From the NCBI GenBank assembly GCA_963675245.1, contig OY775910.1, positions 480,001 through 544,000 on the forward strand: a DNA stretch of 64,000 nt, read 5' to 3'. The DNA is from Acholeplasmataceae bacterium (GTDB taxonomy: Bacteria > Bacillota_I > Bacilli_A > Acholeplasmatales > Acholeplasmataceae). Of this stretch, positions 5,202 to 43,525 are shown piece after piece. Each line of letters starts with the position of its first letter. The first letter of the stretch is position 1. Under the pieces are notes generated by a model. The model saw only the letters and a list, made by a program, of their open reading frames with translations, was not told the origin of the DNA and did no database searches. A program made the translations under genes and the position numbers.

Positions 5202-5230
5202 TTGACAACACCAAAATCCAGTATTATAAT
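5202..5230 (+). promoter_or_regulatory. Consensus sigma-A promoter of the hsp20 gene
   Basis: TTGACA(5202-5207)-N17-TATAAT(5225-5230). Confidence 0.9.
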
Positions 5231-5239
5231 ATAGATGTA

Positions 5240-5266
5240 ATGGCACTTAATACAGTAGAGTGCCAA
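5240..5266 (+). promoter_or_regulatory. CIRCE element (HrcA operator)
   Basis: ATGGCACTT-N9-GAGTGCCAA versus consensus TTAGCACTC-N9-GAGTGCTAA, between promoter and RBS of a small heat-shock gene. Confidence 0.85.
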
Positions 5267-5285
5267 TCATAAAGGAGGTATAGTT

Positions 5286-5729
5286 ATGTTTGGAGTAACG
5301 CCATTCAATGGGCATGTTGTTAAGAGAAACAATGAACCAGATGCGTTTCGTGATTTGATTGATGATTTCTTTAGAGATGACTTCTTCCCATTTAGAAGTC
5401 TCAAGTATGACACATTCAAAGTAGACATTCAAGAAAAGGATGATAACTACTTGATTGAGGCTGATATGCCTGGTATTAAAAAAGAAGATATTCACCTAGA
5501 ATATCATGACGGTTTATTAAATATATCAATAAGTCACGAAGAAAACAAAGAAGAAAAAGATAAGAATTACATTCATAGAGAAAGAAAACAATGTGCTATG
5601 CATCGTACATTAAATCTAGGCGATTTAGATGAGGAGCATATTGAAGCTCAATTAAAAGATGGTATATTAACCATTAAAGCACCTAAAACAACGATTGCCC
5701 AAACAACAAAACAAATCGAAATTAAGTAA
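5286..5729 (+). CDS. Hsp20/alpha-crystallin small heat-shock protein
   Basis: FKVDIQE, ADMPGIKKEDI, YIHRER, IEAQLKDGILTIKAPK; RBS AAGGAGG. Confidence 0.95.
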   Translation: MFGVTPFNGHVVKRNNEPDAFRDLIDDFFRDDFFPFRSLKYDTFKVDIQEKDDNYLIEADMPGIKKEDIHLEYHDGLLNISISHEENKEEKDKNYIHRERKQCAMHRTLNLGDLDEEHIEAQLKDGILTIKAPKTTIAQTTKQIEIK

Positions 5730-5732
5730 AAG

Positions 5733-5756
5733 AAAAGAGCGATTATCGCTCTTTTT
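5733..5756. terminator. Bidirectional intrinsic terminator
   Basis: AAAAGAGCGA-tta-TCGCTCTTTTT between convergent genes. Confidence 0.8.
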
Positions 5757-5761
5757 GCTTG

Positions 5762-7003
5762 TTACGCCTTACTTCTTGCTGGCTTATATGTTTTGTTTGT
5801 ATGATAGTAAAACTTCTTTTTCGCCTTCGGCTTATAAGACTTGGTTTGCATCTTCGTCTTTTTAGGTTGTTCTTGAACAAATGGGTGATAACCAACCACA
5901 TTAATTGTTTGTTTAATGTGACGTTCAACACTCGCTAATAGTTTTCGTTCATTGATATCGCAAAACGACATCGCTATCCCAGATAATCCTGCACGACCTG
6001 TACGGCCAATACGGTGAATATACGTTTCCGCTTCTTCAGGTAAATCATAATTGATCACGAATGATAAATTCTTAATATCAATCCCACGTGACGCGACATC
6101 CGTCGCGACTAATACACTTGTTCTTCTCTTTTTGAAGTTAGCAAGTGCACGTTCACGTGCATTTTGTGATTTATTACCATGAATGGTTTCTGCTTTAATA
6201 CCCGCTTTAAGCAACTCTTTCTCAAGATGATCTGCACCATGTTTCGTTCTTGTGAATACCAAAAGATTGTCTATTTGCATCTCTTCAATTAAATGTAATA
6301 ACAATTCAGTCTTTTGTTTCCTACTCACATAGTAAAGATGTTGAGAAATCTGTTCTACTGTTTCAGTGACGGGTGCGATCGCGATACGTTCAGGATCTTT
6401 TAACAACTCTTTTGCTAACGCTTCAATTGCTTTTGGCATCGTTGCAGAAAATAGCATCGTTTGTCTTTCTTGATGCATGTATTTCACAATCTCTTTCACA
6501 TCGACAATAAATCCCATATCAAGCATACGGTCAGCTTCATCTAAAACGAAATACTTAATATCGTTTAATTTTAAAACACGTTGTCTTAATAAATCAAGAA
6601 GTCTACCTGGTGTTGCGATAATGATATCGACACCTTTTCTAATCGCTTGTTCTTGTTTCTTTTGAGAAACACCACCAAAAATAACGGTGTGTCTTAATCC
6701 AGTATGTTTACCATAAAGTCTGAAGCTTTGCCCTATCTGATTCGCCAACTCTCTTGTTGGTGTTAAAATAAGCGCTGCTAACTTATGTTTTTTATCTCTT
6801 TTTTTGTCTTCGTAAATGTGCTGTAATATCGGTACTGCAAATGCAGCTGTCTTACCAGTACCCGTTTGTGCACTACCTAATACATCATTTCCACCCAATA
6901 ATAATGGAATGGCTTGTTCTTGTATTGGTGTTGGTGTTACATAGCCCTTTTCCTCGATTGATTTGAGGATGTTAGGGATAATACCTAAATCATAAAATGT
7001 CAT
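5762..7003 (-). CDS. DEAD-box RNA helicase (RhlE-like)
   Basis: PTPIQ, AQTGTGKT, PTRELA, TPGRL, LDEADRM, SAT, HRIGRTGRAG; basic C-terminal tail. Confidence 0.95.
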   Translation of the reverse strand: MTFYDLGIIPNILKSIEEKGYVTPTPIQEQAIPLLLGGNDVLGSAQTGTGKTAAFAVPILQHIYEDKKRDKKHKLAALILTPTRELANQIGQSFRLYGKHTGLRHTVIFGGVSQKKQEQAIRKGVDIIIATPGRLLDLLRQRVLKLNDIKYFVLDEADRMLDMGFIVDVKEIVKYMHQERQTMLFSATMPKAIEALAKELLKDPERIAIAPVTETVEQISQHLYYVSRKQKTELLLHLIEEMQIDNLLVFTRTKHGADHLEKELLKAGIKAETIHGNKSQNARERALANFKKRRTSVLVATDVASRGIDIKNLSFVINYDLPEEAETYIHRIGRTGRAGLSGIAMSFCDINERKLLASVERHIKQTINVVGYHPFVQEQPKKTKMQTKSYKPKAKKKFYYHTNKTYKPARSKA

Positions 7004-26567: not shown

Positions 26568-28028
26568 CTAGAATAGTGATTTAACAGTTGGATAAATTTT
26601 TACGAACTGTTTATATTTTTCTTGATATAATGCCACTTGATCCAATTGAGGTTCAAATACTTTTTCGATTTTAATCATTTGTTGACAAGCTTCTTCTACG
26701 TTTTGATAAACGCCTGATCCTACCATCGCTAAGATCGCAGCACCATAAGCTGGTCCTTCGTTTGAGGTGGTTCTAACCACTCTTGCATCCATGATGTCTG
26801 AAACAATCTGACACCATATATCATTTTGTGCACCGCCACCTGTTATTTTTATTTCTTTTATGTTGATTCCTAAGTCTTTAATCAGGCACATAGAATCATT
26901 TAAAGCAAATGTGACACCTTCAATTAAAGCTCTCCCCATATCAAATATGGTATGTTTTGCCGATAGACCCAAAAAGACGCCCTTAGCATTAGGATCGTTG
27001 ATTGGTGCTCTTTCTCCCATTAAATATGGTAGGAAAAATAAGTGTTCTTTGGGATCGGCATTTTCGATACCATTATACATCTCTTTAAATGAAATGTCTT
27101 TTATTATTTTTCTAAACCAACTCACTGATCCAGCTGCACTAAGCATAACAGCCATCAAATGATACTTACCGTTTGCGTGAGCATAACTCTGTAAATGACT
27201 CTTATAATCTGGGAAAAATTTGTTTGATGAGACAAAGATAACACCGGATGTGCCAAGTGAAATACTCACATCACCATCATTAACAACACCAAGCCCTATA
27301 GCACCTGCTGCTTGGTCACCTGCACCAGCAATAACATTCACATGTTGCGTGATTTTTAAATAACCTTTAACTGATTCCGTTAAATCACCTACAACATCAC
27401 TGCTTTCAACAATCGTTGGGAAACATGATAAATCTAATCCCGTAAGTGAAATAATATCTTTTGCATATTGTCTGTGATTAACGTCATACCATAACGTACC
27501 TGATGCGTCACTGACTTCTGAAACAAACTTTCCTGTTAACTTGTACACTAAATAATCTTTAGGTAACATGATTTTTGCAATCCGTTTAAAATGTTCAGGT
27601 TCATGTTTTTTAACCCATAACAATTTAGGTAATGTTAATCCAGTAACAGCGATATTTCCAGTTGACTTCATTAGCTGATCAATACCAAATTCATTATTTA
27701 GAAAATCAACTTCTTCTACAGTTCGTTGATCATTCCATAAAATAGCTGGTCTAATAATGTCATCATTTTCATCTAGTAAGGTCAATCCATGCATCTGTCC
27801 AGAAAAACTAATCCCTTTAATCACTGGTTCATTTCCTTGAATGATTTCTTTAAGTGCTGAAAATGTTTGATGATACCATTGATGAGGATCCTGTTCACTC
27901 CAGGAAGCTTTTTCCATGTTGACATCGAAACTTCTACTGACTGTATTTAGTATGTTGCCTAAGTGATCCACAAGGATTAACTTGACGCTTGATGTGCCTA
28001 GATCGATACCAACGAACATGTATTTCAC
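26568..28028 (-). CDS. xylB: Xylulokinase
   Basis: GIDLGTSSVK, SGQMHG, ILWNDQRT, GDQAAGA, FLPYLMGER; adjacent to xylA. Confidence 0.95.
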   Translation of the reverse strand: MKYMFVGIDLGTSSVKLILVDHLGNILNTVSRSFDVNMEKASWSEQDPHQWYHQTFSALKEIIQGNEPVIKGISFSGQMHGLTLLDENDDIIRPAILWNDQRTVEEVDFLNNEFGIDQLMKSTGNIAVTGLTLPKLLWVKKHEPEHFKRIAKIMLPKDYLVYKLTGKFVSEVSDASGTLWYDVNHRQYAKDIISLTGLDLSCFPTIVESSDVVGDLTESVKGYLKITQHVNVIAGAGDQAAGAIGLGVVNDGDVSISLGTSGVIFVSSNKFFPDYKSHLQSYAHANGKYHLMAVMLSAAGSVSWFRKIIKDISFKEMYNGIENADPKEHLFFLPYLMGERAPINDPNAKGVFLGLSAKHTIFDMGRALIEGVTFALNDSMCLIKDLGINIKEIKITGGGAQNDIWCQIVSDIMDARVVRTTSNEGPAYGAAILAMVGSGVYQNVEEACQQMIKIEKVFEPQLDQVALYQEKYKQFVKIYPTVKSLF

Positions 28029-29342
28029 CTACCCTAGTAAATACTGATTTATAATTGACTCCAATAATTCTTGACGACCAGATTCATTCGGTTCCAAATC
28101 GCCTTTTTCTAAGACATATTTTTCAAGTTTCTTGAAGTCGACTTTACCTTCTTCAATCGCTTTACCAATGCCATCATTGTATGATGCATAACGTTGATCT
28201 ATCAATTTTTCTAATACTTTATCTTCCCAAAGCTTCGCTGCAATTTTTAAACCTGCTGCGAATGCGTCCATACCAGCGATATGTGACAAGACTAAGTCAT
28301 CTAATTCGAATGAAGCTCTTCTTGGTTTTGCATCAAAGTTTAAACCACCAGAAGATAGACCACCACCACGAATAATTTCATACATCGCCATCGTCGTATC
28401 ATAAATGTTTGTAGGAAATTGATCGGTATCCCAACCAAGTAACATATCTCCTTGATTGGCATCAACACTACCTAACATACCCGCATCAACTGCTAGTCTT
28501 AGTTCATGTTGCATCGTATGTCCTGCAAGTGTTGCATGATTCGCTTCAATGTTTAACTTAAAGTGTTTATCTAATCCGTGTTGTCTTAAAAATGATAAGA
28601 CGGTTGCACTGTCATAATCATATTGATGTTTTGTTGGTTCTTTTGGTTTAGGTTCAATATATAACTGACCCTTAAATCCGATTTCTTTTTTATAGTCTAC
28701 TGCTAACCATAACAATTTAGCAAAATGTGCTTGTTCGCGTTTCATATCTGTATTTAATAATGTTTCATAACCTTCTCGACCACCCCAGAATGTATAACCA
28801 CTACCATTCAAACGGTGAGTAAGTTCCATGGCTTTTTTAATTTGAGCAGCCGTAAATGCGAAGACATCAGCGTTAGGAGATGTGCTTGCACCATTAACGA
28901 AACGTGCATTAGAGAATGTGTTTGCAGTTCCCCATAATAGTTTAATACCCGTTTCTTTCATCTTCTTTTCGATTTTGTCAGCAACAACATCTAATCGTCT
29001 GTTTGTTTCAGCTAAAGAGTCCGCTTCTGGTGCGATGTCACGGTCATGAAAACAAAAATATTCAATGCCTAACTTTTGCATAAACTCAAATGCTGCGTCG
29101 ACTCTATTTAAAGCTTGATCCATTGGATCTACATCTTTATTCCAAGGTCTATCAAAGAAAGGATCACCAAACATGTCTATCCCTAACCATTTGAATGTAT
29201 GCCAATAAGCGACTGAAAATTTCAAGTGATCCTTCATTGGTTTACCTAAAACGATAGCGTCTTTATCATAAAACTTAAACGCGAAAGGGTTCTTACTGTT
29301 TTTTCCTTCATACTTAATTTCTTTAATTTGATCAAAATACAT
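28029..29342 (-). CDS. xylA: Xylose isomerase (class II)
   Basis: [49 protein letters not shown]. Confidence 0.98.
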
Positions 29343-29387
29343 GGTTAATGCTCCTTTTTAAAAAATTTTAATGTTTGAGATTTATGC

Positions 29388-29419
29388 ACATTGTTTAATC
29401 ATAAAACTTTATGTATAAT
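29388..29419 (+). promoter_or_regulatory. xylR promoter overlapped by a XylR-operator-like site
   Basis: TTGTTT(29391-29396)-N17-TATAAT(29414-29419); ACATTGTTT-N7-AAACTTTAT at 29388-29412. Confidence 0.6.
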
Positions 29420-29442
29420 GAGAGAAAGCGAGGTAATCACTT

Positions 29443-30603
29443 ATGAAAACGGGTAATGCTCAATCGATCAAATTAATCAATACACGTCTTGTGCTTGAAC
29501 AACTCATCGAACATCATGAGACAACACGCATTGAAATTGCACGTCGTACAACACTTAATAAAGCAACTGTTTCTTCAATTGTTGCCGAACTCGTCGACAG
29601 ACAATTCGTCTTAGAAACATCTAAGATTATTAAGACGGCTGGTCGAAGTGCCAACATTCTCGCTTTAAATAAAAATGCAGGTCGAATCTTCTCTTTAGAA
29701 TTACTTCCTAGAAGCATATATGCGATTATCACAAACCTTTATGGGAAAATCGTTTATGAAACGACGAGGCCAGTGGATAATCCAGAATTTAGTGCATATA
29801 TTAACGTCGTTTTCGACGTCATCGATGAATTGAAAGGTCAGACATTTGATTCTGTCTATGGTGTCATCGGTATTGGTGTCGGTGTTTATGGCATCTTATC
29901 CAAAGATAAGAAAATTAAATTTTCAACATTTAACTCATGGCGAGACATTGAACTTAAATCCATTATCGAAAACCATACTGGTATCGATACGTATATTGAA
30001 AATGAAGCGAATATCTCTGCATTAGGTGAACGAATCGTTTATCCTAATTTTGATAACATCGTGTCTTTAAATATTGGCGCCGGTGTCGGTACAGGTATTA
30101 TCATTAACAATAAATTATATACAGGCAATGATGGATACGCTGGTGAATTTGGTCATACGATTGTTGTTCCTAATGGAAAGCATTGCATCTGCGGTAACTA
30201 TGGCTGCTTAGAACGTTATATTGCTGATGATGCTGTCATTGAACGTTATTTTGAACTTGCCAATGAAACAGTGACCTTAAAGACATTAATTGATAAATTC
30301 AAACAAGGTAATCCTTATGCCATTCAAGTATATGATGAATTTATTAACTATTTGTCAATCGCTGTTAATAATCTAGCCCAAACTTTAAACCCTAAAGCAC
30401 TTGTGATCAACAGTCTCATTGTAGAAATGATTCCAGAAAGTATTCAACTCATTAAGGGAAATCTTCATTCAAAAATATTGAACCTAGATTTACTCACAAC
30501 ATCTACTTTCAAGTCAAAACGGAATGTTTTAGGATTAACACATCTACTCATTCAGCATTTTTACGATATCGTTAATTACTCTCCTAAACTCGCAAAAAAA
30601 TAA
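29443..30603 (+). CDS. xylR: ROK-family xylose repressor
   Basis: N-terminal HTH (TTRIEIARRTTLNKATVSSIV), ENEANISALGE, GEFGH, CICGNYGCLE; divergent from xylA. Confidence 0.9.
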   Translation: MKTGNAQSIKLINTRLVLEQLIEHHETTRIEIARRTTLNKATVSSIVAELVDRQFVLETSKIIKTAGRSANILALNKNAGRIFSLELLPRSIYAIITNLYGKIVYETTRPVDNPEFSAYINVVFDVIDELKGQTFDSVYGVIGIGVGVYGILSKDKKIKFSTFNSWRDIELKSIIENHTGIDTYIENEANISALGERIVYPNFDNIVSLNIGAGVGTGIIINNKLYTGNDGYAGEFGHTIVVPNGKHCICGNYGCLERYIADDAVIERYFELANETVTLKTLIDKFKQGNPYAIQVYDEFINYLSIAVNNLAQTLNPKALVINSLIVEMIPESIQLIKGNLHSKILNLDLLTTSTFKSKRNVLGLTHLLIQHFYDIVNYSPKLAKK

Positions 30604-30636
30604 CAAGTCTTTAATTAACGATACCGTTTTAATTTA

Positions 30637-30684
30637 AGTTAGCGCTTTCAAAGTTAGTTTAACACTTATACTATGTTTTGTCAA
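30637..30684 (-). promoter_or_regulatory. Minus-strand sigma-A promoter with XylR-operator-like palindrome and cre site, downstream of xylR and pointing towards xylA
   Basis: TTGACA(30684-30679)-N17-TAAACT(30661-30656) with extended TG; AGTTAGTTT-N7-ATACTATGT (30652-30676); TGAAAGCGCTAACT (30650-30637) fits cre TGWAARCGYTWNCW. Confidence 0.7.
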
Positions 30685-30712
30685 TGTTTTTTTGTTGATA
30701 TTTTTTTTCATA

Positions 30713-30739
30713 ATAAAAGGCCTTTATAAGGCCTTTTAT
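30713..30739. terminator. Bidirectional intrinsic terminator (xylR / spt-SDR operon)
   Basis: ATAAAAGGCCTT-tat-AAGGCCTTTTAT. Confidence 0.85.
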
Positions 30740-30778
30740 CTTTCATAATATCAACTATTCATCCGTGTTTTCATGTTT

Positions 30779-31591
30779 TTAATTCTGCTTTAAATTCGTA
30801 AATCCATATAATTTATCAATGAGCCAGTGCACAAAACGTGAAGGCAATAAGCGATTAAGCAACAAGAATACTTTGTACTTAAAACCTATAATTTTATGAA
30901 GCGGCATTCTTCTTCTCTCAACCAATCTACCAATAACCTTACCCGCATCACTCGCATCAATACCATTTTGTTCATCCGTTTCCATAACTTTCAGTGATTT
31001 GATAAATCGTCTTCGATATTTAGAACTTTCTTCTTTGTTTTTAACGCGATTTTGTGTGAATCCCGTTTTAATATCTCCTGGGAAAACTGTGCACACTTGA
31101 AAACCAAAAGGTTTTAATTCTATATCAAGTGCATCTGATAAAGCTTCTACTGCAGCTTTTGAACTACTATAAAATGCCTGAAAAGGAATAGAAAATCTTC
31201 CAGCCACAGATCCTAGATTAATGATTTTAGGCTTTTTCACAACGTGCATATAAGGCAGTGCGGCTTTTACAGAATAAAAAACACCCATGAGATTGACATC
31301 AAAAATATAATTGGCATCTTCAATGGTCGTTTCTTCAACACTACCTGCAATACCCATGCCTGCGTTATTGATTAAAACATCAATACGACCTTCAACATCA
31401 AATATATCTTTATAAGCTAATTTAAGTTGTTCAAAATCTTTCACATTTGCTTGAATGGCATTCACACCTTTAGCAACCGTTTTTGATCTAGCTACACCAT
31501 AAACAATATGGCCTTTATTTGCTAGATAAGCTGCAGTTGATAACCCAATGCCTGAAGATGCGCCTGTGATTACAATGACCTTTTGTTTCAT
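30779..31591 (-). CDS. Classical SDR oxidoreductase, probable 3-ketosphinganine reductase
   Basis: TGASSGIG, NNAG, S...YSSSK catalytic residues, PGDIKTGF; basic residue after beta2 suggests NADP(H); TAATG-coupled to an spt-like gene. Confidence 0.7.
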   Translation of the reverse strand: MKQKVIVITGASSGIGLSTAAYLANKGHIVYGVARSKTVAKGVNAIQANVKDFEQLKLAYKDIFDVEGRIDVLINNAGMGIAGSVEETTIEDANYIFDVNLMGVFYSVKAALPYMHVVKKPKIINLGSVAGRFSIPFQAFYSSSKAAVEALSDALDIELKPFGFQVCTVFPGDIKTGFTQNRVKNKEESSKYRRRFIKSLKVMETDEQNGIDASDAGKVIGRLVERRRMPLHKIIGFKYKVFLLLNRLLPSRFVHWLIDKLYGFTNLKQN

Positions 31592-32778
31592 TAATCTAAT
31601 ATATCCTTCGTTTCTTCTAAGACTTCTACAATATGTTTGATGGCTTCATCCATGAGTTCTTTTGTATGTGTTGCAGTATAAGATGTTCTAATTAAACATT
31701 CCCCCGCAGGTGCTGCAGGTGGCACAACAGGATTGACATAAACCCCACGTTCAAATAACATATTGCAAGCGATGATTGTTCGCATTTGCGTATAGGTATA
31801 TATCGGGATAATTGGTACTTTTGATTCTCTCATTTCAATCCCTTTTTCATGAAGTCCTTTACGCATATAATCAGCGATATTTAAAAGATTATGTGCACGT
31901 TCTGGTTCTCTTTTTAAAACCCTTAGTGCAGCAAGCGCAGCTGCTGTATTTGGTGCTGGAATCGCAGCAGAGAAAATATAGGGTCTTGAATTGTGTCTAA
32001 TATATTCAACAACATCATATTCAGCTGCGACATATCCACCAATGCTTGCGAGTGATTTAGAAAATGTCCCCATGATGATATCGACTTCTTTTTCTAGTCC
32101 AAAGTATTCTGCAGTTCCTCTACCACCATGACCCAACACACCAAAACCGTGTGCATCATCTACCATCACACGCGCTTCATATTGTTTTGCCAGTCTAACA
32201 ATTTCTGGAAGTTTCGCAATATCACCAGACATGGAGAAAACACCGTCAGTGACGATCAATTTCCCTTTATTTGGATCTGCACTGGCTAATCTTTGTTCTA
32301 AATCAGACATATCAGAGTGATTATATCTGACAACTTCAGCATATGATAGTCTGTTTGCATCATAAATACTCGCGTGATTTTCTTTATCAGAAAAAATGAT
32401 GTCGTTACGTCCTGCAATCGCAGAAATAATACCTAGATTAGATTGAAATCCAGTTGAAAAGATGGTGCAATCTTCTTTATTCAAAAACGCTGCGAGTTCT
32501 TTCTCTAGCGTTTCATGTAGGTCAAGTGTACCATTTAAAAACCTAGACCCCGAAACACCTGTACCATATTTTTTGACTGCATCCACAGCAGCCTGAATCA
32601 CTTCTGGATGAGATGTAAGTCCTAAATAATTATTAGAGCCTATCATGATTTCTCTATGACCTTCCATTTCCACGACGACATCTTGTTTTGATGTTAATGT
32701 GTGAAAATAGGGATAATATCCTGATGCTTTCGCTTTCTTAGCTGCGTCATATGCATAGCACTTTTTAAATAAGTCCAT
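31591..32778 (-). CDS. spt: PLP-dependent alpha-oxoamine synthase, probable serine palmitoyltransferase
   Basis: GYYPYF, GSNNYLGL, GSRFLNGTLDLH, STGFQSNLG, NHAS, DGVFSM, DDAH, GTFSKS, VNPVVPPA; pattern fits Bacteroidota-type SPT better than KBL or BioF (by eye). Confidence 0.78.
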   Translation of the reverse strand: MDLFKKCYAYDAAKKAKASGYYPYFHTLTSKQDVVVEMEGHREIMIGSNNYLGLTSHPEVIQAAVDAVKKYGTGVSGSRFLNGTLDLHETLEKELAAFLNKEDCTIFSTGFQSNLGIISAIAGRNDIIFSDKENHASIYDANRLSYAEVVRYNHSDMSDLEQRLASADPNKGKLIVTDGVFSMSGDIAKLPEIVRLAKQYEARVMVDDAHGFGVLGHGGRGTAEYFGLEKEVDIIMGTFSKSLASIGGYVAAEYDVVEYIRHNSRPYIFSAAIPAPNTAAALAALRVLKREPERAHNLLNIADYMRKGLHEKGIEMRESKVPIIPIYTYTQMRTIIACNMLFERGVYVNPVVPPAAPAGECLIRTSYTATHTKELMDEAIKHIVEVLEETKDILD

Positions 32779-32939
32779 GTAAATCCTCTCTTTATATAAA
32801 TACGTTTTATTCTATTATACTGTATTTTATTAAAATATGACCTTACACATTACCACTGTGTGGTAACAATAAATGTCTTTCAACGATTTATTGGCTTTAT
32901 ATCAATATTTCATCTAAGAATAGTATCATTCAATAAATA

Positions 32940-32970
32940 AAAAAAGCTTGACAATTATGTCAAGCCTTTT
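32940..32970. terminator. Intrinsic terminator after the vWA lipoprotein gene
   Basis: AAAAAAGCTTGACA-atta-TGTCAAGCCTTTT. Confidence 0.8.
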
Positions 32971-32989
32971 CTTAATGTCACATTTATCA

Positions 32990-34453
32990 TTAATTAGCAA
33001 CAATTTCATATTGTATAATCGTCTTTAATAAATCGACAAATTCTGATTTATACATATCTTCGGTTACTGTGTTTAAATGTTCAATTCTTGAAAGTGCATT
33101 TGCCAGGTTAGCCTCATTCAAATATACACTTTCTCTTAAAATTAAAACCGTTTCAATTAGACTAGAAATAAATAATGCATCTTCACTTGGTTCTGATGTA
33201 ATTGCTGTTGGTAAAATTTCAGATACTTGTTCAAGTTGTGTATCATCAGACGTATCTGGACTTTTATATTTAATAGTTATATCTGCTAGTTTACTGTCAG
33301 AAATTGATTCACGTAATTTGATTTCAAAGACAACCGTAACCATCAAATCTGAACCTATCTCACCGGCATCTGTTTCTTCATTCGTGAACTCTTCTTCTGT
33401 TAATAAGCCGTGCTCATACCCTACTAAACGATATGATTCAACATTATCAGAATTAAATATAATTTGTGCTTTTGCATCTCTTGCTACAGTGTAAAGTGTC
33501 CCATTTATACCTTCCGAAAATGCACGATTAGCTTCTTGTACACTATCAATATACATATAGATACCATTACCATGTCTTGCTAGCGTCTCAAGATTGTCAT
33601 CTTGCAAATTACCACGACCAAAGCCAAATACCGAGAAATAAATACCAGACTGTCTTTTTTCTATGATAAATTCTTCGAGTTCTCCTCGTTCAACAATACC
33701 AAAATTAAAATCACCATCTGTGCATAATATGATACGGTTATTCCCCCCTTCAATGAAATGGTCAGTCGCTACGCTATAAGCACGCTCAATACCATCAGAT
33801 CCATATGTTGATCCAGATGCTTCTAATGCATTAATATAACTCATCATTTGATTACGATTTTCTCCTGATAAACCAGAAAATACTAATTTTGTCACAGAAG
33901 AATATGTAACAAGACTGATGGTATCACCATCTGATAAGTTTTCCACTAAAATATTTAAGGATTGTTTGACTAAATCCAGTTTTAGTGGATCATCCATTGA
34001 ACCAGATACATCAACTAAGAATACATAGTTATTACCAATAAGTAACTGTTCTGTTACTACTGCTTTCATGCCTACTATTAATAGTTTCGTCTCAGTATTC
34101 CAAGGTGTATCAATAACTTCAAAGGATGTACCTAACACATCATCACCGCTAGGATCATCGTAATCATATTTGAAATAATTAATAAATTCTTCAACACGAA
34201 GACTATTTCTATCAATGAATCCACCTTGATTAATAGTCGATCTAAAATTTGTATATGCAGCTGTGTTCACCGTTAAAGATAATTGTGATGTAGGGTTTTC
34301 TGATGTTAAGATAAAAGGATTCTCAACGATTCCTTGATAGGTATCCGTATAATTATAGTTAGCGTCTGGATCACTATTGTAATTTTCCATTGAAGAACAA
34401 GCCGTTAAAAAAGATAAACAACAAATCATAAATACAAATATCAATTTCTTCAT
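32990..34453 (-). CDS. von Willebrand factor A domain lipoprotein (YfbK-like)
   Basis: Lipobox LTAC; RVEEFINYFKY, MIDAS DVSGSM, TDGDFN, YRLVGYE, DAGEIG. Confidence 0.9.
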   Translation of the reverse strand: MKKLIFVFMICCLSFLTACSSMENYNSDPDANYNYTDTYQGIVENPFILTSENPTSQLSLTVNTAAYTNFRSTINQGGFIDRNSLRVEEFINYFKYDYDDPSGDDVLGTSFEVIDTPWNTETKLLIVGMKAVVTEQLLIGNNYVFLVDVSGSMDDPLKLDLVKQSLNILVENLSDGDTISLVTYSSVTKLVFSGLSGENRNQMMSYINALEASGSTYGSDGIERAYSVATDHFIEGGNNRIILCTDGDFNFGIVERGELEEFIIEKRQSGIYFSVFGFGRGNLQDDNLETLARHGNGIYMYIDSVQEANRAFSEGINGTLYTVARDAKAQIIFNSDNVESYRLVGYEHGLLTEEEFTNEETDAGEIGSDLMVTVVFEIKLRESISDSKLADITIKYKSPDTSDDTQLEQVSEILPTAITSEPSEDALFISSLIETVLILRESVYLNEANLANALSRIEHLNTVTEDMYKSEFVDLLKTIIQYEIVAN

Positions 34454-34538: not shown

Positions 34539-34609
34539 TTAACTTGGCGTAGTCATGTTATTATGATAATGTGATATCATAACATTAAGAAAACCAAGGG
34601 GTGGTAGAC

Positions 34610-35278
34610 GTGCGAATATTAATTGTTGAAGATGAAAAACACTTAAACGATTTATTACATGATTACATTGAAGAATCTTTTTCTGATGCCGAAATTGATC
34701 AAGTCTTTGATGGTATCACTGCTCTAGATGCAGTACATAATGCCCTATATGATTTGATCTTACTTGATGTTATGTTACCGCATATGAATGGATTTGATGT
34801 CTGCAGACATATTAGAGAAAATTCAGATGTTCCCATTATGATGCTCTCTGCATTAAGTGATGAAGAAAATCAATTAAAAGGATATAATCTCGGTATAGAT
34901 GATTACGTTACAAAACCTTACAGTCCTAAAATTGTGATTCAAAAGATATCTTCTGTCTTATCTCGATATGATCATAAATCGCCTAATCAATTAATGACTT
35001 ATGGCATCATATCGTATAATTTCGAGCAATACAAACTTACTATCAATCATCAACTTGTGTCTTTAAATAAAAAAGAGTGGGAATTATTTGTACTGTTTGT
35101 TCAACATATTGGTCGTGTTTTTTCAAGAGAAGAATTACTGAATCTAATTTGGGGATATGATTATTATGGTTTTGAAAGAACAGTCGATACCCATATCAAA
35201 CGTCTAAGACAAAAAATGGGTGACGCTTCATCCTACATTAAAACAGTTTACAAGTCTGGTTATAAATTCGAAAAATAA
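34610..35278 (+). CDS. OmpR-family response regulator
   Basis: ILIVEDE, LLDVMLP, DDYVTKPY, FSREELL..IWG, RTVDTHIKRLRQK; GTG start at 34610 (34601 also possible). Confidence 0.95.
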   Translation: MRILIVEDEKHLNDLLHDYIEESFSDAEIDQVFDGITALDAVHNALYDLILLDVMLPHMNGFDVCRHIRENSDVPIMMLSALSDEENQLKGYNLGIDDYVTKPYSPKIVIQKISSVLSRYDHKSPNQLMTYGIISYNFEQYKLTINHQLVSLNKKEWELFVLFVQHIGRVFSREELLNLIWGYDYYGFERTVDTHIKRLRQKMGDASSYIKTVYKSGYKFEK

Positions 35279-35299
35279 TCAATATAGGGAGGCGAACAT

Positions 35300-36703
35300 A
35301 TGAAAATAAACATTTTTTTCAAAACTTTTTTTGCATTATTTATTTCATTTTCGCTCGTTTTTATATTGAATTTATATATATCCTATCAACGCTTTTCACC
35401 TTTATATATCGAAGAAAATATTAGTCATGTAAAATCCATCATATTATCATCTGTTCCAGATATTTCAAATAGCACTCCTTTATCTGATACCGACCTTAGT
35501 CGTCTTTCAAGCGAAACAACGTTCTTACGTTATGATGGTACAATTACAGAAATGATTGGCCCAAATTATCTAGGTTTATCAGATATGCTTGATTTTGTTA
35601 TTGGCATTTATGATAGTGAAGATGCCATTGTTGAAGGTAATTTAATCTATCATACACTGAAGGTTGATGACATTTATCAAATCAACTATATTTATCAATT
35701 TGATGTCGGTGATTACTTAATTGTACAGACCCGTGTACAATCACTTGAAAATGTTGATGCAATACTTAATCGTATCAACTTTTCTCAATCAATCTATGCA
35801 TTCATCATCATCACTGCCATATCTATTATCATTTCATTGAATATTTCCAGACCCATCAAGAAAATTAACGATTATGCTAAAAAAATATCTAATTTAGATC
35901 TTCAAGGACAATTAAAACTGAATAGACGTGATGAATTTAAAGAGCTTGTCACTTCACTTAATGAAATGACATTCAATTTGAAGACAACTTATGTTAGTCT
36001 TCAAGAAGCTAATGATAAATTGTCTATAGATATTGATTTTGAAAAACAACAAGAAGAAAAAAGAAAGCAATTAATCATGATGATCAACCACGAAGTGAAA
36101 ACACCGCTAGCGGTGATGAAAGGCATGATTGAAGGTATGATTGATGGTGTTGGTAGATACAAGAACAAAGATAAGTATTTACGTGAACTTCTCACACAAA
36201 TTAATGTCATAGAAAGTATCACACAAGATTTAACATATTCATTACGACTTGAAGATAAAGTAAATAAAGAAACTGTTACGAATGCTACCTTGATAAATGA
36301 GCAATTGGATTCGCTAGAATTGTTTGCCCAACAACATCATGTTAAAATAAATAAAGATATTGATGCTTGCACTCTTTTGATTAATGAAGAATTATTTCTG
36401 ATTATGTGCTCTAATCTAATTAAAAATGCAATTATTTACAGTCAAGATAGGTTGATACATGTTTCTGGTAAGTCTATAGGTAATCAATATATTTTCACCG
36501 TTAAAAATAAAGGTGAAATTCCTGAATCAGAAATCCAAAAGCTTTTTGATCCCTTCTATCGTCTCAAACAAACTAAATCAAAAGGAACTGGTTTAGGTTT
36601 AAGCATTGTAAAACAAATTGCAGAATTATACAGTTATCCTTATAAGTTATTTAATGATAATGGAGAAGTTGTTGCAAAAGTACAAATTAAAATCAAAAAA
36701 TAG
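35300..36703 (+). CDS. HAMP-domain sensor histidine kinase
   Basis: 2 TM, HAMP (RRDEFKEL), H-box NHEVKTPL, NLIKNA, FDPFYR, GTGLGL. Confidence 0.95.
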   Translation: MKINIFFKTFFALFISFSLVFILNLYISYQRFSPLYIEENISHVKSIILSSVPDISNSTPLSDTDLSRLSSETTFLRYDGTITEMIGPNYLGLSDMLDFVIGIYDSEDAIVEGNLIYHTLKVDDIYQINYIYQFDVGDYLIVQTRVQSLENVDAILNRINFSQSIYAFIIITAISIIISLNISRPIKKINDYAKKISNLDLQGQLKLNRRDEFKELVTSLNEMTFNLKTTYVSLQEANDKLSIDIDFEKQQEEKRKQLIMMINHEVKTPLAVMKGMIEGMIDGVGRYKNKDKYLRELLTQINVIESITQDLTYSLRLEDKVNKETVTNATLINEQLDSLELFAQQHHVKINKDIDACTLLINEELFLIMCSNLIKNAIIYSQDRLIHVSGKSIGNQYIFTVKNKGEIPESEIQKLFDPFYRLKQTKSKGTGLGLSIVKQIAELYSYPYKLFNDNGEVVAKVQIKIKK

Positions 36704-36758: not shown

Positions 36759-37442
36759 ATGAAAAAGTTAATCGTGTTGTTTGTGTCCATTTTCTTACTA
36801 TTTTCTATTTACGGCTGCGCTTCTGAATACATAGATGATCCCGATCCTGGTTTATCTAATGTTTTACGGTTTGATTCAAATCAGTTAATTTTTTATGTGC
36901 AATCCGGTTTAGATGTTTTATATGGCATACCCAATCCTTCCGATGATGTCATTATTTTAAAAACCGTATATTTTGAGGAATCTCTTTCTGAAGATCAACA
37001 AAATGCTTATCGGCATATACTTGAACATATTGAAACATTATCAGAGGAAACATCTGTTTCAATATCTGATATATTACAATATGATTCACAAACGCTTAAC
37101 GATGCTTTAGAGGCACTCCAATTAGACGTAACACTAAACGATATTGTTATCTTCAATGAATTAAAAACATTAAGTGAAGACTGGAATATGATTCCAGTAA
37201 TGACGCGTTTTGAATATATCGAAGCAAGATTACAACGTACCTTGACTATGGATGAAGAGTCAAATATTAATTACTTACAGTATCTATATATTGATTTAAG
37301 AGATATTGATGATAATTATCGCCTTTTTGATCACACTGATCTATTCCTAATAGAAACATTAGAATCATATGGTATAAGACTTGCAGATGATAATAAAGAT
37401 GCAATTACGAATGCTTACGAATTATTACTTCAATTAAATTAA
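36759..37442 (+). CDS. Hypothetical acidic lipoprotein
   Basis: MKK + hydrophobic stretch + IYGC lipobox; RBS GAGGAGGTG. Confidence 0.7.
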   Translation: MKKLIVLFVSIFLLFSIYGCASEYIDDPDPGLSNVLRFDSNQLIFYVQSGLDVLYGIPNPSDDVIILKTVYFEESLSEDQQNAYRHILEHIETLSEETSVSISDILQYDSQTLNDALEALQLDVTLNDIVIFNELKTLSEDWNMIPVMTRFEYIEARLQRTLTMDEESNINYLQYLYIDLRDIDDNYRLFDHTDLFLIETLESYGIRLADDNKDAITNAYELLLQLN

Positions 37443-37485
37443 AAAAAACATCTCAACTGAGTAATACCAGTAAGATGTTTTTTTT
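37441..37485. terminator. Bidirectional terminator
   Basis: A-tract-CATCT...AGATG-T-tract hairpin between convergent genes. Confidence 0.7.
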
Positions 37486-38386
37486 ATTTACTCAATTCAA
37501 CGGCAATTTGTGCAGCTAATTTCGCATTATTATAAACTAATTCAAGATTCGCTCTTAACGATTCTCCATCGGTTTTATTCTTAATATAATCTAGTAAAAA
37601 TGGTGTCGTATCTTTGCCATTAATACCGCGTTTATTTGCTTCATCAATCGCAATATCAATGACATTGTTTATCACTTTAGGATCTTGGCTAAACGCTTCT
37701 GGTATTGGATTTGCAACGACAACACCACCACTTAAACCTAGTCCCCATTTCGCATGTAATAAATCTGCAATCTCCTTTGGTGTATCTAATTTATAAGTAA
37801 CCTTATGTCCACTCGTTCTTGTATAAAATGCGGGGAGTTCTTCGGTTTGATACCCAATGACTTCAACACCTTTGGTTTCCAAGTATTCCATCGTTAGACC
37901 TAAATCTAGAATGGACTTCGCGCCCGCACAAACCACACACACTTCAACAGTTGCAAGTTCTTCTAAATCTCTTGAGATATCAAAGGTTTCTTGTGCGCCT
38001 CTATGCACGCCACCAATCCCACCAGTAGCGAATACTTTGATCCCTGCCATCTTCGCGATAAGCATAGTCGCAGATACGGTAGTCGCACCGTTAAGCTTTT
38101 TCGAAACAGCATATCCAAAATCTCTTTTACTGACTTTCAATACACCTTTCGCTTTTGCAAGCATGTCTAATTCTTCATCACTTAAACCCACTTTAATTAC
38201 ACCATCAATAATAGCGATTGTAGCAAGTACTGCACCTTCACTTTTGATAAGCCCTTCAACATGTTTTGCCATCTCAACATTGACAGGATAAGGCATCCCA
38301 TGAGAAATAATCGTTGACTCCAAAGCGACAACTGGTTTTCCCTCGTTTAATGCTTTTTTTATATCATGTTTTATATCAACTGTCAT
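37484..38386 (-). CDS. psuG: Pseudouridine-5'-phosphate glycosidase
   Basis: [48 protein letters not shown]. Confidence 0.96.
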
Positions 38387-39267
38387 AGTTCAACCTCTTC
38401 TAATGCTTTAACAGACATCTTATTAGAAACAGCTTTTTCGCTTTGTACGGTTAGAACAGCGGCTTTTCTTGCATATTCAATCGGATCTAATCCTCTTATT
38501 TTACCGTAAATTATACCTGCAAAAAAGGCATCTCCCGCACCTGATGTGTTTTTAGCAACAATCGGTGTAGATGGATATATCTCAGCATGATCTTTTGTCA
38601 TAAAGAAAGATCCTTCTTTACCTAACGTAATATAAATTTCTTTAACGCCTTTTGATAAAAAATATTTACCGAGTACTTCCGGGTTATTTTCTTCAAACAT
38701 GCCAGATAAATACTGCGCTTCTAACTTATTCATCTTAAGTGCGGTTAAGTACCTTAAATATGGCTTAATACGATCCGCTTTTCTAGCGGAAATAACATCC
38801 ACATAAAATGGTTTTTTATATGTTTCAAAAATATAAGAAAGTGTCTCTTGATTTAAGTTGGTATCTACAACGATAATATCAGCATTTTGAAAACTCGCAT
38901 CTCTTACTTTGATATCGTCTTTCGTGACAAGTTCGATTTCATCCATCGCAGCAATCGCCACGACATTATCATTTTCCTCATTCAAAATAGACACATATGT
39001 TGGTGTGTTCTCCGTTTGAATGATAGATAATTTTAACATGACATCTTGTGCGTTTTGCATGACGAGTTTACGACCTTCATCTTTACCGACAGGTGTGATG
39101 AGGGTTGTATCTATGCCAAGTCTTGCTAAGTTCTCAGCGATATTTCTTCCAACTCCACCGAGTGATTGTTTTAAATAACCTGGATTAGAATCACCAAGTA
39201 TGATTTTTTCTTTTGGGTATGCAAAAAGATCTATAACTGATCCACCAACAACGAGTACTTTTTCCAT
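38383..39267 (-). CDS. psuK: PfkB-family carbohydrate kinase, probable pseudouridine kinase
   Basis: [26 protein letters not shown]; overlaps psuG; start at ATG 39267. Confidence 0.85.
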
Positions 39268-39355
39268 AGAATTTTCCCTTTCATGATTGTTACTATTATA
39301 ACAAAATTCTCTCAAAAAGAGAAGAAAGAGCACGAGTAACTCGCGCTCTTGTTAA

Positions 39356-42300
39356 TTAATAATTAAATGGTTCTTCCGGTTCTTCTTGATACGTATTAGA
39401 ACGATCAAACTCAAATGAAGATTCCTTTAGAATACCCGTACCAGCAGGGATTAAACCACCGATAATGACGTTTTCTTTAAGACCATGAAGTTCATCTATT
39501 TTACCCTTAATCGCCGCGTCAGTCAAGATTCTTGTTGTTTCTTGGAATGATGCTGCTGATAAGAATGAATCAGATCTTAGTGATGCACGCGTGATACCTA
39601 ATAAGATAGGGCGACCAACCGCAGGTCTCTTACGTGCAAGGAATGCTTTCTTGTTTTCACGTTTGAATTCAGATACGGATACTTCAGTACCTGGTAATAA
39701 TTCTGTTTCACCTTCAGTGACGATGGTGATACGACGTAACATTTGTCTGATGATGAGCTCGATATGTTTATCAGAGATTTCAACACCTTGCGCACGATAA
39801 ACCTTTTGAACTTCTTCTAAGATATAGAGTTCAGCTGCTTCAGCAGAAACAACTCTTAAGAGTTCTTTAGGATTAATAGAACCAAGTGTTAGACGTTGAC
39901 CAGCTTTGACACTCGCATTCTTACGAACAAGAGATTCAACGTTTGGATCAATGGTGTACTTGTACTCTTTATCGTGTGCATCTGTGATCGTAACGATAGA
40001 TGAACCACCCCGTTGACGATCAATTGATTTAACCTTACCATCAACTTCTGATAGCACAGCTTTACCTTTAGGATTACGTGCTTCAAATAATTCTTGAATA
40101 CGTGGAAGACCTTGGGTAATATCTGATGCAGATGCCACCCCACCCGTGTGGAATGTACGCATGGTTAACTGTGTACCAGGTTCACCAATAGATTGCGCTG
40201 CAACAACCCCAACTGCTTCACCGACTTCAACAGGTGTGTTTGTAGCGAGGTTTCGACCGTAACATTTCGCGCAGACACCATTGTCTGAATTACAGGTTAA
40301 GTTTGATCTAATTTCAACTGCTTCAACACCGGCTTGAATCACTTGAGCACCAAGTTCATCAGTCACTAAACCGTTTCTTGGAACGATCATTTCTTTCGTC
40401 TTAGGATTAACAACGTCTTTCGCAACATAACGACCAACAATACGGTCATATAGTGGTACGATTTCTTTTGTTTCATCTTCTAAGATGGATCTCATGACAA
40501 CACCACGTTCAGTACCACAATCATCTTCAACAACGATGACATCTTGTGAAACGTCAACTAAACGACGTGTTAAGTATCCTGATTCAGCTGTTTTAAGCGC
40601 TGTATCGGTAGAACCTTTACGCGCACCGTGCGTTGAAATAAAGAATTCAGACACGGTTAAGCCTTCTCTAAATGACGCTTGGACAGGGACTTCAATAATA
40701 TCACCACGCGGGTTATTCATGAGTCCACGCATACCTGCTAATTGTGAGAAGTTTGAGGCATTACCACGGGCACCAGAGTCAGACATCATATAGATGTTGT
40801 TATCCGGATCAAATTCGCCCATTAAGCCAACTTGGATATCATCACGAGCTACTTGCCATTCTTTAATGACTAAGTCTTTACGTTCTTTATCTGTTAACCA
40901 ACCTTCATCGTACCATTCATTGACTTTAGCGATTTCTTCGTTTGCTTTTTCAATACGTTCATGTTTACCTGAGTAAACGTTAATATCAGCAAATGATACC
41001 GTTATACCAGCAACCGTTGAATATTTAAAGCCTAAGTCTTTTAATCTGTCAAGCATCTTTGATGTTTCAGAGATGTGTAGTTGCTTGAAGACTTGAGCAA
41101 TGATTTGTGATAAGAATTTCTTCTTGAATGGTGAAGGTACAGGTGTACTTTCTAAGAACTTTTTAGGATTCGTGCCTTTAGGCATGAAGTATGTATCAGG
41201 TGTCTTATTTTCTAAATTCGTGATCGTTGGTTCATTCAAATAAGGGAATGAAGAAGGTAGAATTCTGTTGAAAATAAGTTTACCAAATGTGGTGAGTAAA
41301 TATTTATCTCTTTGATCAGCAGTAAAGACTTGATTGATTGATTTAGGATCCACTAAAATTCTTGTATGTAAGCCGATTTCTTTGTGTTCAAAAGCCATTT
41401 CAGCCTCTGAAAAATCAAAGAAGAAATGTCCTTCATTTCTGTGTTTATGTGCATGTTCTTTTTGTTTCTCATCAGCACGATAACCACCAAATGGACGGTG
41501 AGCTTTTTCTTCAATCGTTAAGTAATAGTTACCTAAGACCATATCCTGTGATGGTGTAACAACTGGTTTACCATCTTTAGGGTTAAGAATATTGTTAGAG
41601 GCTAACATGAGCAATCTAGCTTCTGCTTGTGCTTCATTTGATAGTGGGACGTGAACAGCCATTTGGTCACCATCGAAGTCAGCGTTAAACGCTGGTGTAA
41701 CGAGTGGATGAAGGCGAATTGCTTTCCCATCAATTAATTTAGGTTCAAATGCTTGAATACCTAATCTGTGAAGCGTAGGTGCACGGTTAAGTAAGACTGG
41801 ATGTTCTTTAACAACCTTTTCTAAAGCTGCCCAAACATCATCATCCATACGGTCATACTTAGAGTTTGCATTCTTCTTAGAGTTTGCGTCTAAACCTAGT
41901 TGTTGTTGTAATTCTCTTAAGACGAATGGTTTGAAAAGAATAATAGCCATTTCACGTGGAATACCACATTGATACATTTCTAGGTCAGGACCAACGATAA
42001 TAACAGAACGACCAGAATAGTCAACACGTTTACCAAGTAAGTTTTGTCTGAAACGTCCTTGTTTACCACGTAACATATCAGATAATGATTTTAAGTGTCT
42101 ATTACGTTCAACTGCTGCTTTCTTACCACGTTTCGCGTTATCGAATAATGCGTCAACAGCTTCTTGTAACATACGTTTTTCATTCTTTGTGATGAGTCTT
42201 GGTGCCATTTGTTCTTTTTGTTTTTTAAGACGGTTATTACGGTTTAGAATACGACGGTATAAGTCATTTAAGTCAGTTGTTGCGAAACGACCACCATCTA

Positions 42301-43525
42301 AAGCAACCATTGGTCTTAAGTCTGGTGGAATGACTGGAATGACATCCATAACCATCCATTCAGGTTTGTTATCTGAGTTGTTGAATGATTCAACAACTTC
42401 TAAACGTTTGATAATGCGATCACGTTTTTGTTTAGAAGCAGTCTTTAATTTACGACGAAGAATACGAACTTCTTTATCAAGATCTAATTCTTGTAATAAT
42501 TTCTTAACCGCTTCAGCACCTGTGAGCGCTGTAAACTTACCCCAGTATTCTTCTGAAAGCATACTGAAATCTTGTTCTGATAAGATTTGTTTCTTTTGAA
42601 GTGGTGCTTGACCAGGATCTGTAACGATATATGATGCATGATAAACGACTTCTTCTAACGCTTTTGCTTTAATCCCCAAAAGGATGGCTAAGCGTGAAGG
42701 TGAGTTTTTTAAATACCATGTGTGAACAACAGGTGCTTCAAGTTCAATATGACCCATACGTTCACGGCGTACTTTAGATTCTGTAATTTCAATACCACAC
42801 TTTTGACAGATCTGACCCTTATTACCAGATTGTTTTTTACCGCAAGCACATTGATAATCCCTTGTAGGACCAAAGATGCGTTCGCAGAATAATCCGCCTG
42901 GTTCAGGTTTAGATGTTCTGTAGTTAATCGTTTCGTGTGTTAAGACTTCACCATAACTCCATTGTCTGATTTCATCAGGAGAAGCTAAGCGAATCTTAAA
43001 GTGTGAGAAGGTTCTTGAACCATAACCTTTACGAATAGGTTGAACATGACGATGAATACGTTCTGATAAATCCATGTCAAGTGCACTTTCTTGTGCGACA
43101 AGACCTTCAACTACTTCTTCGCCTTCAATGACGTGAACATGTGTGTGTTCTTTTAATGCGTCAAATCCGTAAAATTCTAAGAGATCGTTAATTTCTTTTC
43201 TTAATAGTTCATCACCTTCAAATAAGTGATATAAGGTGTGACGATCAAAATCGATGAATTCAGGTAAATCGTGGATGCTAGCTGTTTTTAAGATCGAGAT
43301 AGTTTCATCACTTAAGTTAAGATTATCCAAACTTCTTGGTAGGCTATAACGTCTTAAAACTGTTTTAATTTCATCAAATGATTCGCCAAGTAACATCTTC
43401 AACTCTTTTAGGTTAAAGGTGTTAAAGTCTTCTAGTTGTTCAATACCGGAGAGTTTTAAATGGTTTAAGGCTTCTTCTGAAAGTTTTAATGATTCAACGT
43501 GCAATGTGAGTTTTTCTTTTGCCAT
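39356..43525 (-). CDS. rpoC: RNA polymerase beta' subunit with ~170-aa N-terminal extension
   Basis: [42 protein letters not shown]. Confidence 0.99.

Follow-up and report, generated by a model that had tools for sequence, protein, structure and literature searches.

Ceramide-type membrane lipids are usually credited to Bacteroides and Proteobacteria, and they are also said to have been reported chemically from Acholeplasma axanthum decades ago. In this work, we analysed a 64,000-nucleotide stretch of DNA (the window, C1:480001-544000) from the single-contig, 1,626,300 bp, 99.96% complete genome of an Acholeplasmataceae bacterium, in which a gene for a serine palmitoyltransferase (SPT)-like synthase is followed by a gene for a short-chain dehydrogenase/reductase (SDR), and we consider it likely that both belong to a single operon that serves to make a sphingoid long-chain base. 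The closest described systems are the CFB-type SPT (Sphingobacterium multivorum 3A2B/8GUH, BT_0870 and the NCBIfam model NF047600), the BT_0972-type 3-ketodihydrosphingosine reductase (model NF049977, KdsR), the proteobacterial pathway of Spt, bCerS (bacterial ceramide synthase) and CerR together with AcpR/AasR (CC_1162/1154/1164; spt-yghO-epi in Escherichia coli BL21; PMC9386255), and the cysteate acyltransferases (CFAT/SulA/CapB) with their ketocapnine reductase. Glycine C-acetyltransferase (KBL) and BioF belong to the same alpha-oxoamine synthase (AOS) superfamily. The two genes in question are the following, each with the evidence on which its label rests.

31591..32778, minus strand: SPT-like AOS, dependent on pyridoxal phosphate (PLP), 395 aa, Schiff-base lysine K241 (hidden Markov models (HMMs), PDB structures, pocket residues, tree)
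30779..31591, minus strand: 3-ketodihydrosphingosine-reductase-like classical SDR, 270 aa (NF049977 as best model, SDR motifs, TAATG coupling, adjacency)

The two open reading frames (ORFs) share base 31591, at which the TAA stop codon of the synthase runs into the ATG start codon of the SDR (TAATG). These positions and lengths and this overlap are exactly as stated in an earlier sequence-only reading of the same DNA, and the synthase motifs that it listed (GYYPYF, GSNNYLGL, GSRFLNGTLDLH, STGFQSNLG, GTFSKS and VNPVVPPA) were all found in the translation.

Judged by family models, solved structures and phylogeny, the synthase is closer to characterised SPT than to KBL, BioF, ALAS, CqsA or CFAT. 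Pfam assigned it to Aminotran_1_2 only, and its top NCBIfam model was NF047600 (SerpalmtaseCFB, Bacteroidota SPT) with 526.2 bits, followed at lower rank by SerpalmtaseBetaP (beta-proteobacterial SPT, 407 bits), KBL (402 bits), BioF (386 bits) and ALAS (266 bits). The rhodobacterial-type model NF047599 gave 599 bits for the Spt of E. coli BL21 and 407 bits for the window synthase, which is of the CFB and not of the rhodobacterial type. Like the CFB-type SPTs, it has the fold-type I PLP-dependent AOS architecture and the same length, and it is likewise soluble and stand-alone, without a dedicated acyl carrier protein (ACP) gene alongside. Its top solved relative is the SPT of S. multivorum (3A2B and the 8GUH series), with 420 bits in a gapless alignment over residues 6-390, compared with 277 bits for another SPT, up to 268 bits for KBLs and 239-244 bits for cysteate acyltransferases. 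The residues of the S. multivorum enzyme that bind PLP and L-serine have been described (PMC10196870), and among the 14 residues named there that we compared, 13 are identical in the window synthase (N49, G77, S78, F80, H135, S182, D207, A209, H210, T238, S240, K241 and F269). The PLP lysine and its His/Asp/His cage are kept (K241, H135, D207 and H210, equivalent to Lys244, His138, Asp210 and His213 of S. multivorum), and the set that contacts L-serine and its water network (Asn52, Gly80, Ser81, Ser185, Thr241, Ser243 and Met271) is identical except for Met271, which is replaced by Ile268 and makes its contact via the main-chain carbonyl only.

The phylogeny agrees with this placement. In a maximum-likelihood tree (quick search, 58 rows, LG+G4, SH-aLRT support only), the synthase lies in a clade with 99% SH-aLRT support that contains Acholeplasmataceae, Izemoplasmatales and Clostridia plus one metagenome-assembled genome (MAG) labelled Paludibacteraceae. 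This clade is nested among representatives that score best with the CFB SPT model of NCBIfam. The Spt of E. coli BL21 stands further out, and the basal positions are taken by BioF and by E. coli Kbl together with the KBL paralogue of the genome. None of the 38 scanned representatives of 50% clusters reached the curated equivalog cut-off of NF047600, 640 bits (best 625), so the tree carries no equivalog-grade Bacteroides anchor; the representative P0123 was considered as the S. multivorum cluster and ruled out. Close homologues, 76-88% identical, occur in 'Mariniplasma sp. M4Ah', in 'Tenericutes bacterium MO-XQ/MZ-XQ' and in MAGs of Acholeplasmataceae, and carry source names such as '8-amino-7-oxononanoate synthase' or a generic PLP aminotransferase. 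HMMs, structures and tree therefore all side with the sequence-only reading in placing the enzyme with SPT and not with BioF, KBL or ALAS. The Paludibacteraceae-labelled sequence in the clade belongs to L108, a rumen MAG assigned to Bacteroidota, whose SPT-SDR pair groups with Clostridia sequences and not with the CFB-type representatives, a placement that points to possible gene transfer or a binning error.

The second gene product shows the features of a classical NADP-type SDR, with the motifs TGASSGIG at residue 9, NNAG at 75 and YSSSK at 141 and, read by eye, an Arg-Ser pair directly after the second strand. No signal peptide was seen by eye, and hydrophobic and basic residues abound in the last 80 positions at the C-terminus. 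BT_0972 shares the classical fold class, the length, the TGxxxGxG, NNAG and S-Y-K motifs and the NADP-type basic residue. Consistent with the likeness to BT_0972 noticed earlier, the top NCBIfam model for the SDR was NF049977 (KdsR, BT_0972-type 3-ketodihydrosphingosine reductase) with 257.7 bits over model positions 1-267 of 267, and the runner-up was formed by generic SDR subfamilies at 203.8 bits, a margin of about 54 bits. The predicted activity, reduction of 3-ketodihydrosphingosine, fits the second step of sphinganine synthesis. BT_0870 and BT_0972 are unlinked in B. thetaiotaomicron according to PMC9278070, as the sequence-only reading had stated, whereas here the synthase is operonic with its reductase.

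This linkage is a property of the whole group. We sampled 101 genomes of the family, including this one, and counted 56 as positive for the SPT-type synthase, namely 54 with matches of at least 509 bits and two with matches truncated at a contig end (447.6 and 342.6 bits); another genome had a KBL-type match only. In 51 of the 56 positive genomes, the synthase is immediately followed on its own strand by the SDR, and in the other five it is at a contig end or cut by it, so that the pairing is far from chance. The synthase was present in all sampled members of the genera g1, g5, g9, g13 and g20, and within the same sample no copy of it was found in g2, g14 and g15 (0/10 each), nor in g4, g8, g10, g17 and g19. 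We also compared neighbourhoods of at most 20 kb from the window and from 20 relatives, 21 regions in all. The pair lies downstream of rpoC (rpoB-rpoC) in 16 of them and ahead of rpsL-rpsG-fusA-tuf likewise in 16, and the space that separates it from rpoC is often occupied by pseudouridine genes (PfkB kinase, Indigoidine_A). Across these regions, identity to the window proteins was 67-87% for the synthase and 45-77% for the SDR. In the genome studied here, the pair is detached from the str operon, which lies elsewhere. Such a distribution fits vertical inheritance with losses and not recent transfer. The neighbouring psuK/psuG genes (PfkB, Indigoidine_A), GntR regulators, GGDEF and NERD proteins and a tRNA methyltransferase were considered as pathway members and rejected, since they are not lipid genes.

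Beyond the family, the synthase was found in 80 of 399 scored Bacilli genomes (E 1e-130 or better) belonging to 8 of 30 families. We also examined the best 80 named loci, among which there is no genome named Haploplasma (Acholeplasma) axanthum. They include Peloplasma aerotolerans M4Ah, strain MO-XQ, Izemoplasmatales MAGs (70% identity) and Clostridia MAGs of the Christensenellales, Oscillospiraceae, Lachnospiraceae and others (61-69% identity). The SDR adjoins the synthase in 56 of these 80 loci, including every uncut Acholeplasmataceae and Izemoplasmatales locus, and in three Clostridia loci it stands upstream of the synthase instead; 23 of the 24 loci without an adjacent SDR are labelled Clostridia or other Bacillota, the remaining one being a cut Mycoplasmatota locus. 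A KdsR-like SDR (223-252 bits) was present in 5/5 such genomes checked, and it lay away from the synthase in the three whose locus has none next to it. The synteny survey proposed by the sequence-only reading thus shows the pair to be conserved across both Acholeplasmataceae and Izemoplasmatales.

The search of the genome for a ceramide synthase, which had been proposed earlier, returned one candidate outside the window. The gene yghO (ECD_02850) of E. coli BL21, which lies in a sphingolipid cluster of yghO, FAAL, epimerase, ACP and spt, is described in PMC9386255 as the orthologue of Caulobacter CC_1154, an acyl-CoA N-acyltransferase required for dihydroceramide. YghO matches a single ORF of the genome (C1:1567016-1568137, also L117:1501-2622) of 373 aa, with 28% identity over about 300 residues (E 2.5e-29 in the genome search, 1e-33 in the pairwise comparison). 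This ORF is 1.05 Mb away from the gene pair and divergent from tig and lon, and its position beside these genes is kept in several relatives, including one synthase-less genus. Pfam and NCBIfam gave at most a weak GNAT match, ESM Atlas returned only generic 'GNAT family N-acetyltransferase' clusters, and some members of the window's genus carry a second, distant YghO-like paralogue (26-28% identity).

The link between this protein and the synthase comes from other genomes. In L090, a Christensenellaceae MAG (2501-5678), SPT, SDR and a YghO-like gene follow each other in this order with gaps of 2 and 62 nt, and the YghO-like protein aligns over 373 residues with E 9e-40. In L113, a Papillibacter MAG (2492-5862), SPT is followed by a YghO-like gene (4-nt gap) and then by a CerR-like epimerase-family gene, whose product is 27% identical to that of the E. 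coli CerR-type gene, so that a Caulobacter-type trio stands in a Clostridia genome. The YghO-like proteins of L090 and L113 are 34% and 39% identical to that of the window genome, and each is the sole copy in its genome. A strong copy was also found in 4/5 other synthase-positive MAGs tested (Clostridia or Bacteroidota-labelled), and the gene occurs in 49/56 synthase-positive family genomes, the seven without it being 67-93% complete. We regard the YghO-like GNAT as the best candidate for the dihydroceramide-forming N-acyltransferase. The YghO-like gene is intact in nine genomes of the synthase-less genus g14; in the tenth it is a fragment that contains two in-frame TAA stops (G031:C1:464202-464627).

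Components of other known routes were not recovered. The proteobacterial pathway shares the YghO homologue and the first-step chemistry with the system described here, but homologues of CerR, AcpR and FAAL were not found in the genome, nor was a CerR-type reductase of the epimerase family, a dedicated ACP or an acyl-ACP synthetase. The reductase is an SDR instead, and the acyltransferase is unlinked and also present in genomes without the synthase. A TLC-type (eukaryote-type) ceramide synthase (PF03798) was likewise not found in the genome. The genome encodes one ketoacyl synthase (KAS) and one ACP, and no AMP-binding (ANL-type) acyl-CoA synthetase was found in it at E 1e-10 or better, which makes acyl-ACP a likelier donor than acyl-CoA.

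In the pathway that we propose, the PLP-dependent synthase would condense L-serine with a long-chain acyl thioester, probably acyl-ACP, to give 3-ketodihydrosphingosine. The co-translated, cytoplasmic NADPH-type SDR would reduce this to sphinganine in the 'reduce-first' order of Bacteroides and eukaryotes, and the unlinked YghO-like GNAT would N-acylate sphinganine to dihydroceramide, which may serve in the membrane. The minimal two-gene sphinganine module of the sequence-only reading is thus retained as regards the pair itself, but the pathway probably has more than two genes, as a bCerS/YghO homologue exists elsewhere. Compared with the organisms of the CFB-type SPT, the host is a wall-less monoderm without outer membrane, and its synthase would probably be fed by acyl-ACP. 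It would follow that the Acholeplasma group probably makes ceramide-type membrane lipids. We also put forward, as a tentative proposal that still falls somewhat short of being probable, that Acholeplasmataceae, Izemoplasmatales and many Christensenellales and other Clostridia make dihydroceramides via a hybrid pathway used by no studied organism. It would combine an acyl-ACP-fed Bacteroidota-type SPT, a cytoplasmic BT_0972-type reductase acting first and a YghO-family bCerS of the Caulobacter/E. coli type; its cassette, seated between rpoBC and the str operon, would be ancestral to the family and lost in reduced lineages, and it would be the genetic basis of the sphingolipids that are said to occur in Acholeplasma.

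A number of results weigh against these proposals and need to be set beside them. Both proteins score below the curated cut-offs of their best models, the synthase with 526.2 against 640 bits and the SDR with 257.7 against 400 bits. The cut-off of NF047600 was reached by 0/101 genomes in the family and 0/399 in the class, and the synthase stands in a separate, well-supported Bacillota/Mycoplasmatota clade. The resemblance of both proteins to the Bacteroides enzymes that had been noted earlier therefore holds for the type of the best model, but not at the level of the curated cut-offs. The KdsR model is also unspecific; it matches SPT-less controls, with Lactococcus lactis at E 1e-50 or better and Bacillus subtilis and Haloferax volcanii at 1e-40, and the genus g14, which has no synthase, has an SDR with 212-233 KdsR bits that is just 34-36% identical to the window SDR. 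Activity of 3-ketodihydrosphingosine reductases (KDSRs) is known from mutually divergent SDRs (PMC11211663), and therefore the substrate of the SDR is not fixable from its sequence alone. Because the model is unspecific, the known KDSRs are divergent and no solved structure is close to the SDR (best 96 bits), its assignment rests mainly on linkage to the synthase. As for the third step, the YghO-like gene occurs in 17/45 synthase-negative family genomes, including 10/10 in g14, and is operonic with the synthase in just 2/80 named loci. Class-wide, with a YghO-like gene (Y) counted at E 1e-15 or better and with relatives that are non-independent, the genomes divided into 48 SPT+Y+, 32 SPT+Y-, 59 SPT-Y+ and 260 SPT-Y-, so that the gene is enriched among synthase-positive genomes yet present in many synthase-less ones. 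In addition, no gene for a head-group step was identified.

Alternative explanations should be considered in this light. A housekeeping role of the synthase as BioF or KBL, with the SDR as an unrelated neighbour, is barely credible in our view. JGI labels many close homologues of the synthase '8-amino-7-oxononanoate synthase', the KBL and BioF models still reach 386-402 bits, and identity to the E. coli enzymes of this superfamily is 33-38%; however, the NCBIfam margin in favour of SPT is 120 bits, the tree sets the synthase apart from both, and it is invariably linked to the SDR. The genome encodes a single further AOS, which scores 395 bits on the same model and lies directly after a zinc alcohol-dehydrogenase-type gene; this AOS and the preceding gene (C1:995576-997790) match E. 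coli Kbl (40% identity) and Tdh (43%), and KBL is thus already supplied by a separate tdh-kbl pair. E. coli BioA, BioB, BioC and BioD had no match in the genome at E 1e-3 or better, and a genome search with E. coli BL21 Spt found the synthase best (43%, 241 bits) and the AOS paralogue at 190 bits. The absence of bio genes and threonine dehydrogenase next to the pair, from which the sequence-only reading had argued, agrees with this picture. Use of another amino acid, with cysteate (CFAT/SulA) leading to a capnine-type sulfonolipid or alanine or glycine leading to a 1-deoxy or 1-desoxymethyl base, appears highly improbable. CFATs are SPT-like AOSs that, with SDR-type ketocapnine reductases, likewise yield a long-chain amino alcohol (PMC13692747, PMC11211663), and SPTs are reported to take Ala and Gly weakly (PMC10196870). 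Nevertheless, the solved cysteate acyltransferases are distant from the synthase, at little more than half of the 420 bits of the true SPT, and the pocket described as remodelled in CFATs (PMC13692747) keeps here the serine-binding residues of SPT, 13 of 14 being identical.

The order of steps and the end product leave somewhat more room for other explanations. An acylate-first order, which has been proposed for Caulobacter, would have the GNAT act on 3-ketodihydrosphingosine and leave reduction of the resulting oxidised ceramide to the SDR; we think this improbable for the pair described here. The order is debated even in known bacteria (bioRxiv 10.1101/2023.11.08.566215), and the Clostridia locus L113 has the Caulobacter-type set, but the reductase here is of the BT_0972 type, which according to PMC9278070 reduces free 3-ketosphinganine in vitro. 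Moreover, translational coupling ties the SDR to the synthase, the acyltransferase being far away on the chromosome, no CerR homologue was found in the genome, and the steps could not be kept apart by a periplasm, which a wall-less cell lacks. It is also unlikely that a sphingoid base is made whose end product is no classical dihydroceramide membrane lipid and that the YghO-like GNAT has another job, with the base remaining free, being modified (phosphorylated, glycosylated or otherwise N-acylated) or serving in signalling or antagonism. The synthase-negative genomes with a YghO-like gene (17 in the family, 59 in the class), the 32/80 synthase-positive class genomes without one, the lack of an identified head-group enzyme and a DAGK_cat lipid kinase gene just behind the cassette in 3/21 family regions all speak for this explanation. 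On the other side, the YghO-like protein aligns end to end with a protein that is, according to PMC9386255, genetically required for dihydroceramide, its gene follows the synthase or the synthase-SDR pair directly in two genomes, and a strong copy occurs in most of the synthase-positive Clostridia and Bacteroidota-labelled MAGs tested (4/5).

If the proposed synthesis of sphinganine and dihydroceramide works, it would provide a genetic basis for the old chemical reports of ceramide lipids that are said to exist for Acholeplasma, and evidence for sphingolipid synthesis in wall-less and Gram-positive-derived bacteria. It would also offer a compact two-gene sphinganine cassette for expression work and a test of the YghO family as a general bacterial ceramide synthase. 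Should the hybrid pathway be true, sphingolipids would be a normal membrane component in much of the monoderm and wall-less Bacillota, including Christensenellaceae of the human gut. The same synthase occurs in 80/399 sampled Bacilli genomes and in many gut or rumen Clostridia MAGs, a distribution that bears on the gut sources of host-active sphingolipids. The enzymes themselves are of known kinds; it is the setting, a wall-less Acholeplasma relative and a wider Bacillota clade, that we did not find described in the literature, and no paper that we found attributes an spt or a KDSR gene to Mollicutes or to Christensenellaceae. A survey of Black Sea MAGs reported Spt-like proteins in 38 phyla, and its main text does not name Tenericutes, Mycoplasmatota, Firmicutes or Clostridia (PMC11334938).

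The boundaries of the operon could be read from the flanking sequence, in which the following features were recognised.

32939..32972, minus strand: intrinsic terminator of the upstream VWA/YfbK-like lipoprotein gene, forming the 5' boundary of the operon (15-pair stem, 4-nt loop, T run)
32779..32938, minus strand: 160-nt upstream region, presumed to bear the promoter, with a strong Shine-Dalgarno sequence AGAGAGGA 5 nt before the synthase ATG (sequence read)
30712..30740, minus strand: terminator-like hairpin between the SDR gene and the convergent ROK-regulator gene, forming the 3' boundary (13-bp stem, -16.1 kcal/mol, z -5.2)

The sequence-only reading had placed a terminator on each side of the pair. 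The upstream one (32972-32939) stands with its 15-pair stem and T run; the downstream one is a 13-bp hairpin whose tail has only 4 T in 8, and because of this weak tail it was not called by the terminator consensus scan. Promoter-like matches upstream of the synthase were no more frequent than in shuffled sequence, no Rfam family was matched across 30500-33100, and a short inverted repeat (ACCAC-ACA-GTGGT) lies inside the region 32779..32938. The GC content of the gene pair resembles that of the rest of the window.

On the upstream side, psuG-like (Indigoidine_A) and PfkB kinase genes stand directly after rpoC in the window (37484-43525), and in most relatives the cassette follows right behind them, before rpsL. 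The window departs from this order, and the pair is separated from psuG/psuK/rpoC by a gene for a VWA lipoprotein (32990-34453), by a two-component system (34601-36703) and by an ORF of 227 aa (36759-37442). On the downstream side there is a sugar-use block (26568-30603) that consists of a FGGY kinase gene (26568-28028), a gene for a 437-aa protein (28029-29342) and a gene for the ROK-family regulator (29443-30603), which is convergent with the SDR gene. The 437-aa protein is xylose isomerase-like by eye and matched no Pfam family at E 1e-10.

Two other genes were seen next to the cassette in relatives. A 207-aa formate/nitrite-transporter-like (FNT-like) membrane protein is encoded after the SDR in 30/81 loci (for example, L062:4497-5120 and L015:11681-12304); it was considered as a core member and set aside, as a tblastn search of this genome with one representative gave no copy. 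A DAGK_cat lipid kinase of the YegS/DgkB/sphingosine-kinase superfamily is encoded closely behind SPT, SDR and the FNT-like protein in the three regions mentioned above (L026:11876-12787, L030 and L034). It is a possible candidate for a long-chain-base or ceramide kinase, and the window genome carries a copy elsewhere that is 49% identical (C1:848512-849381).

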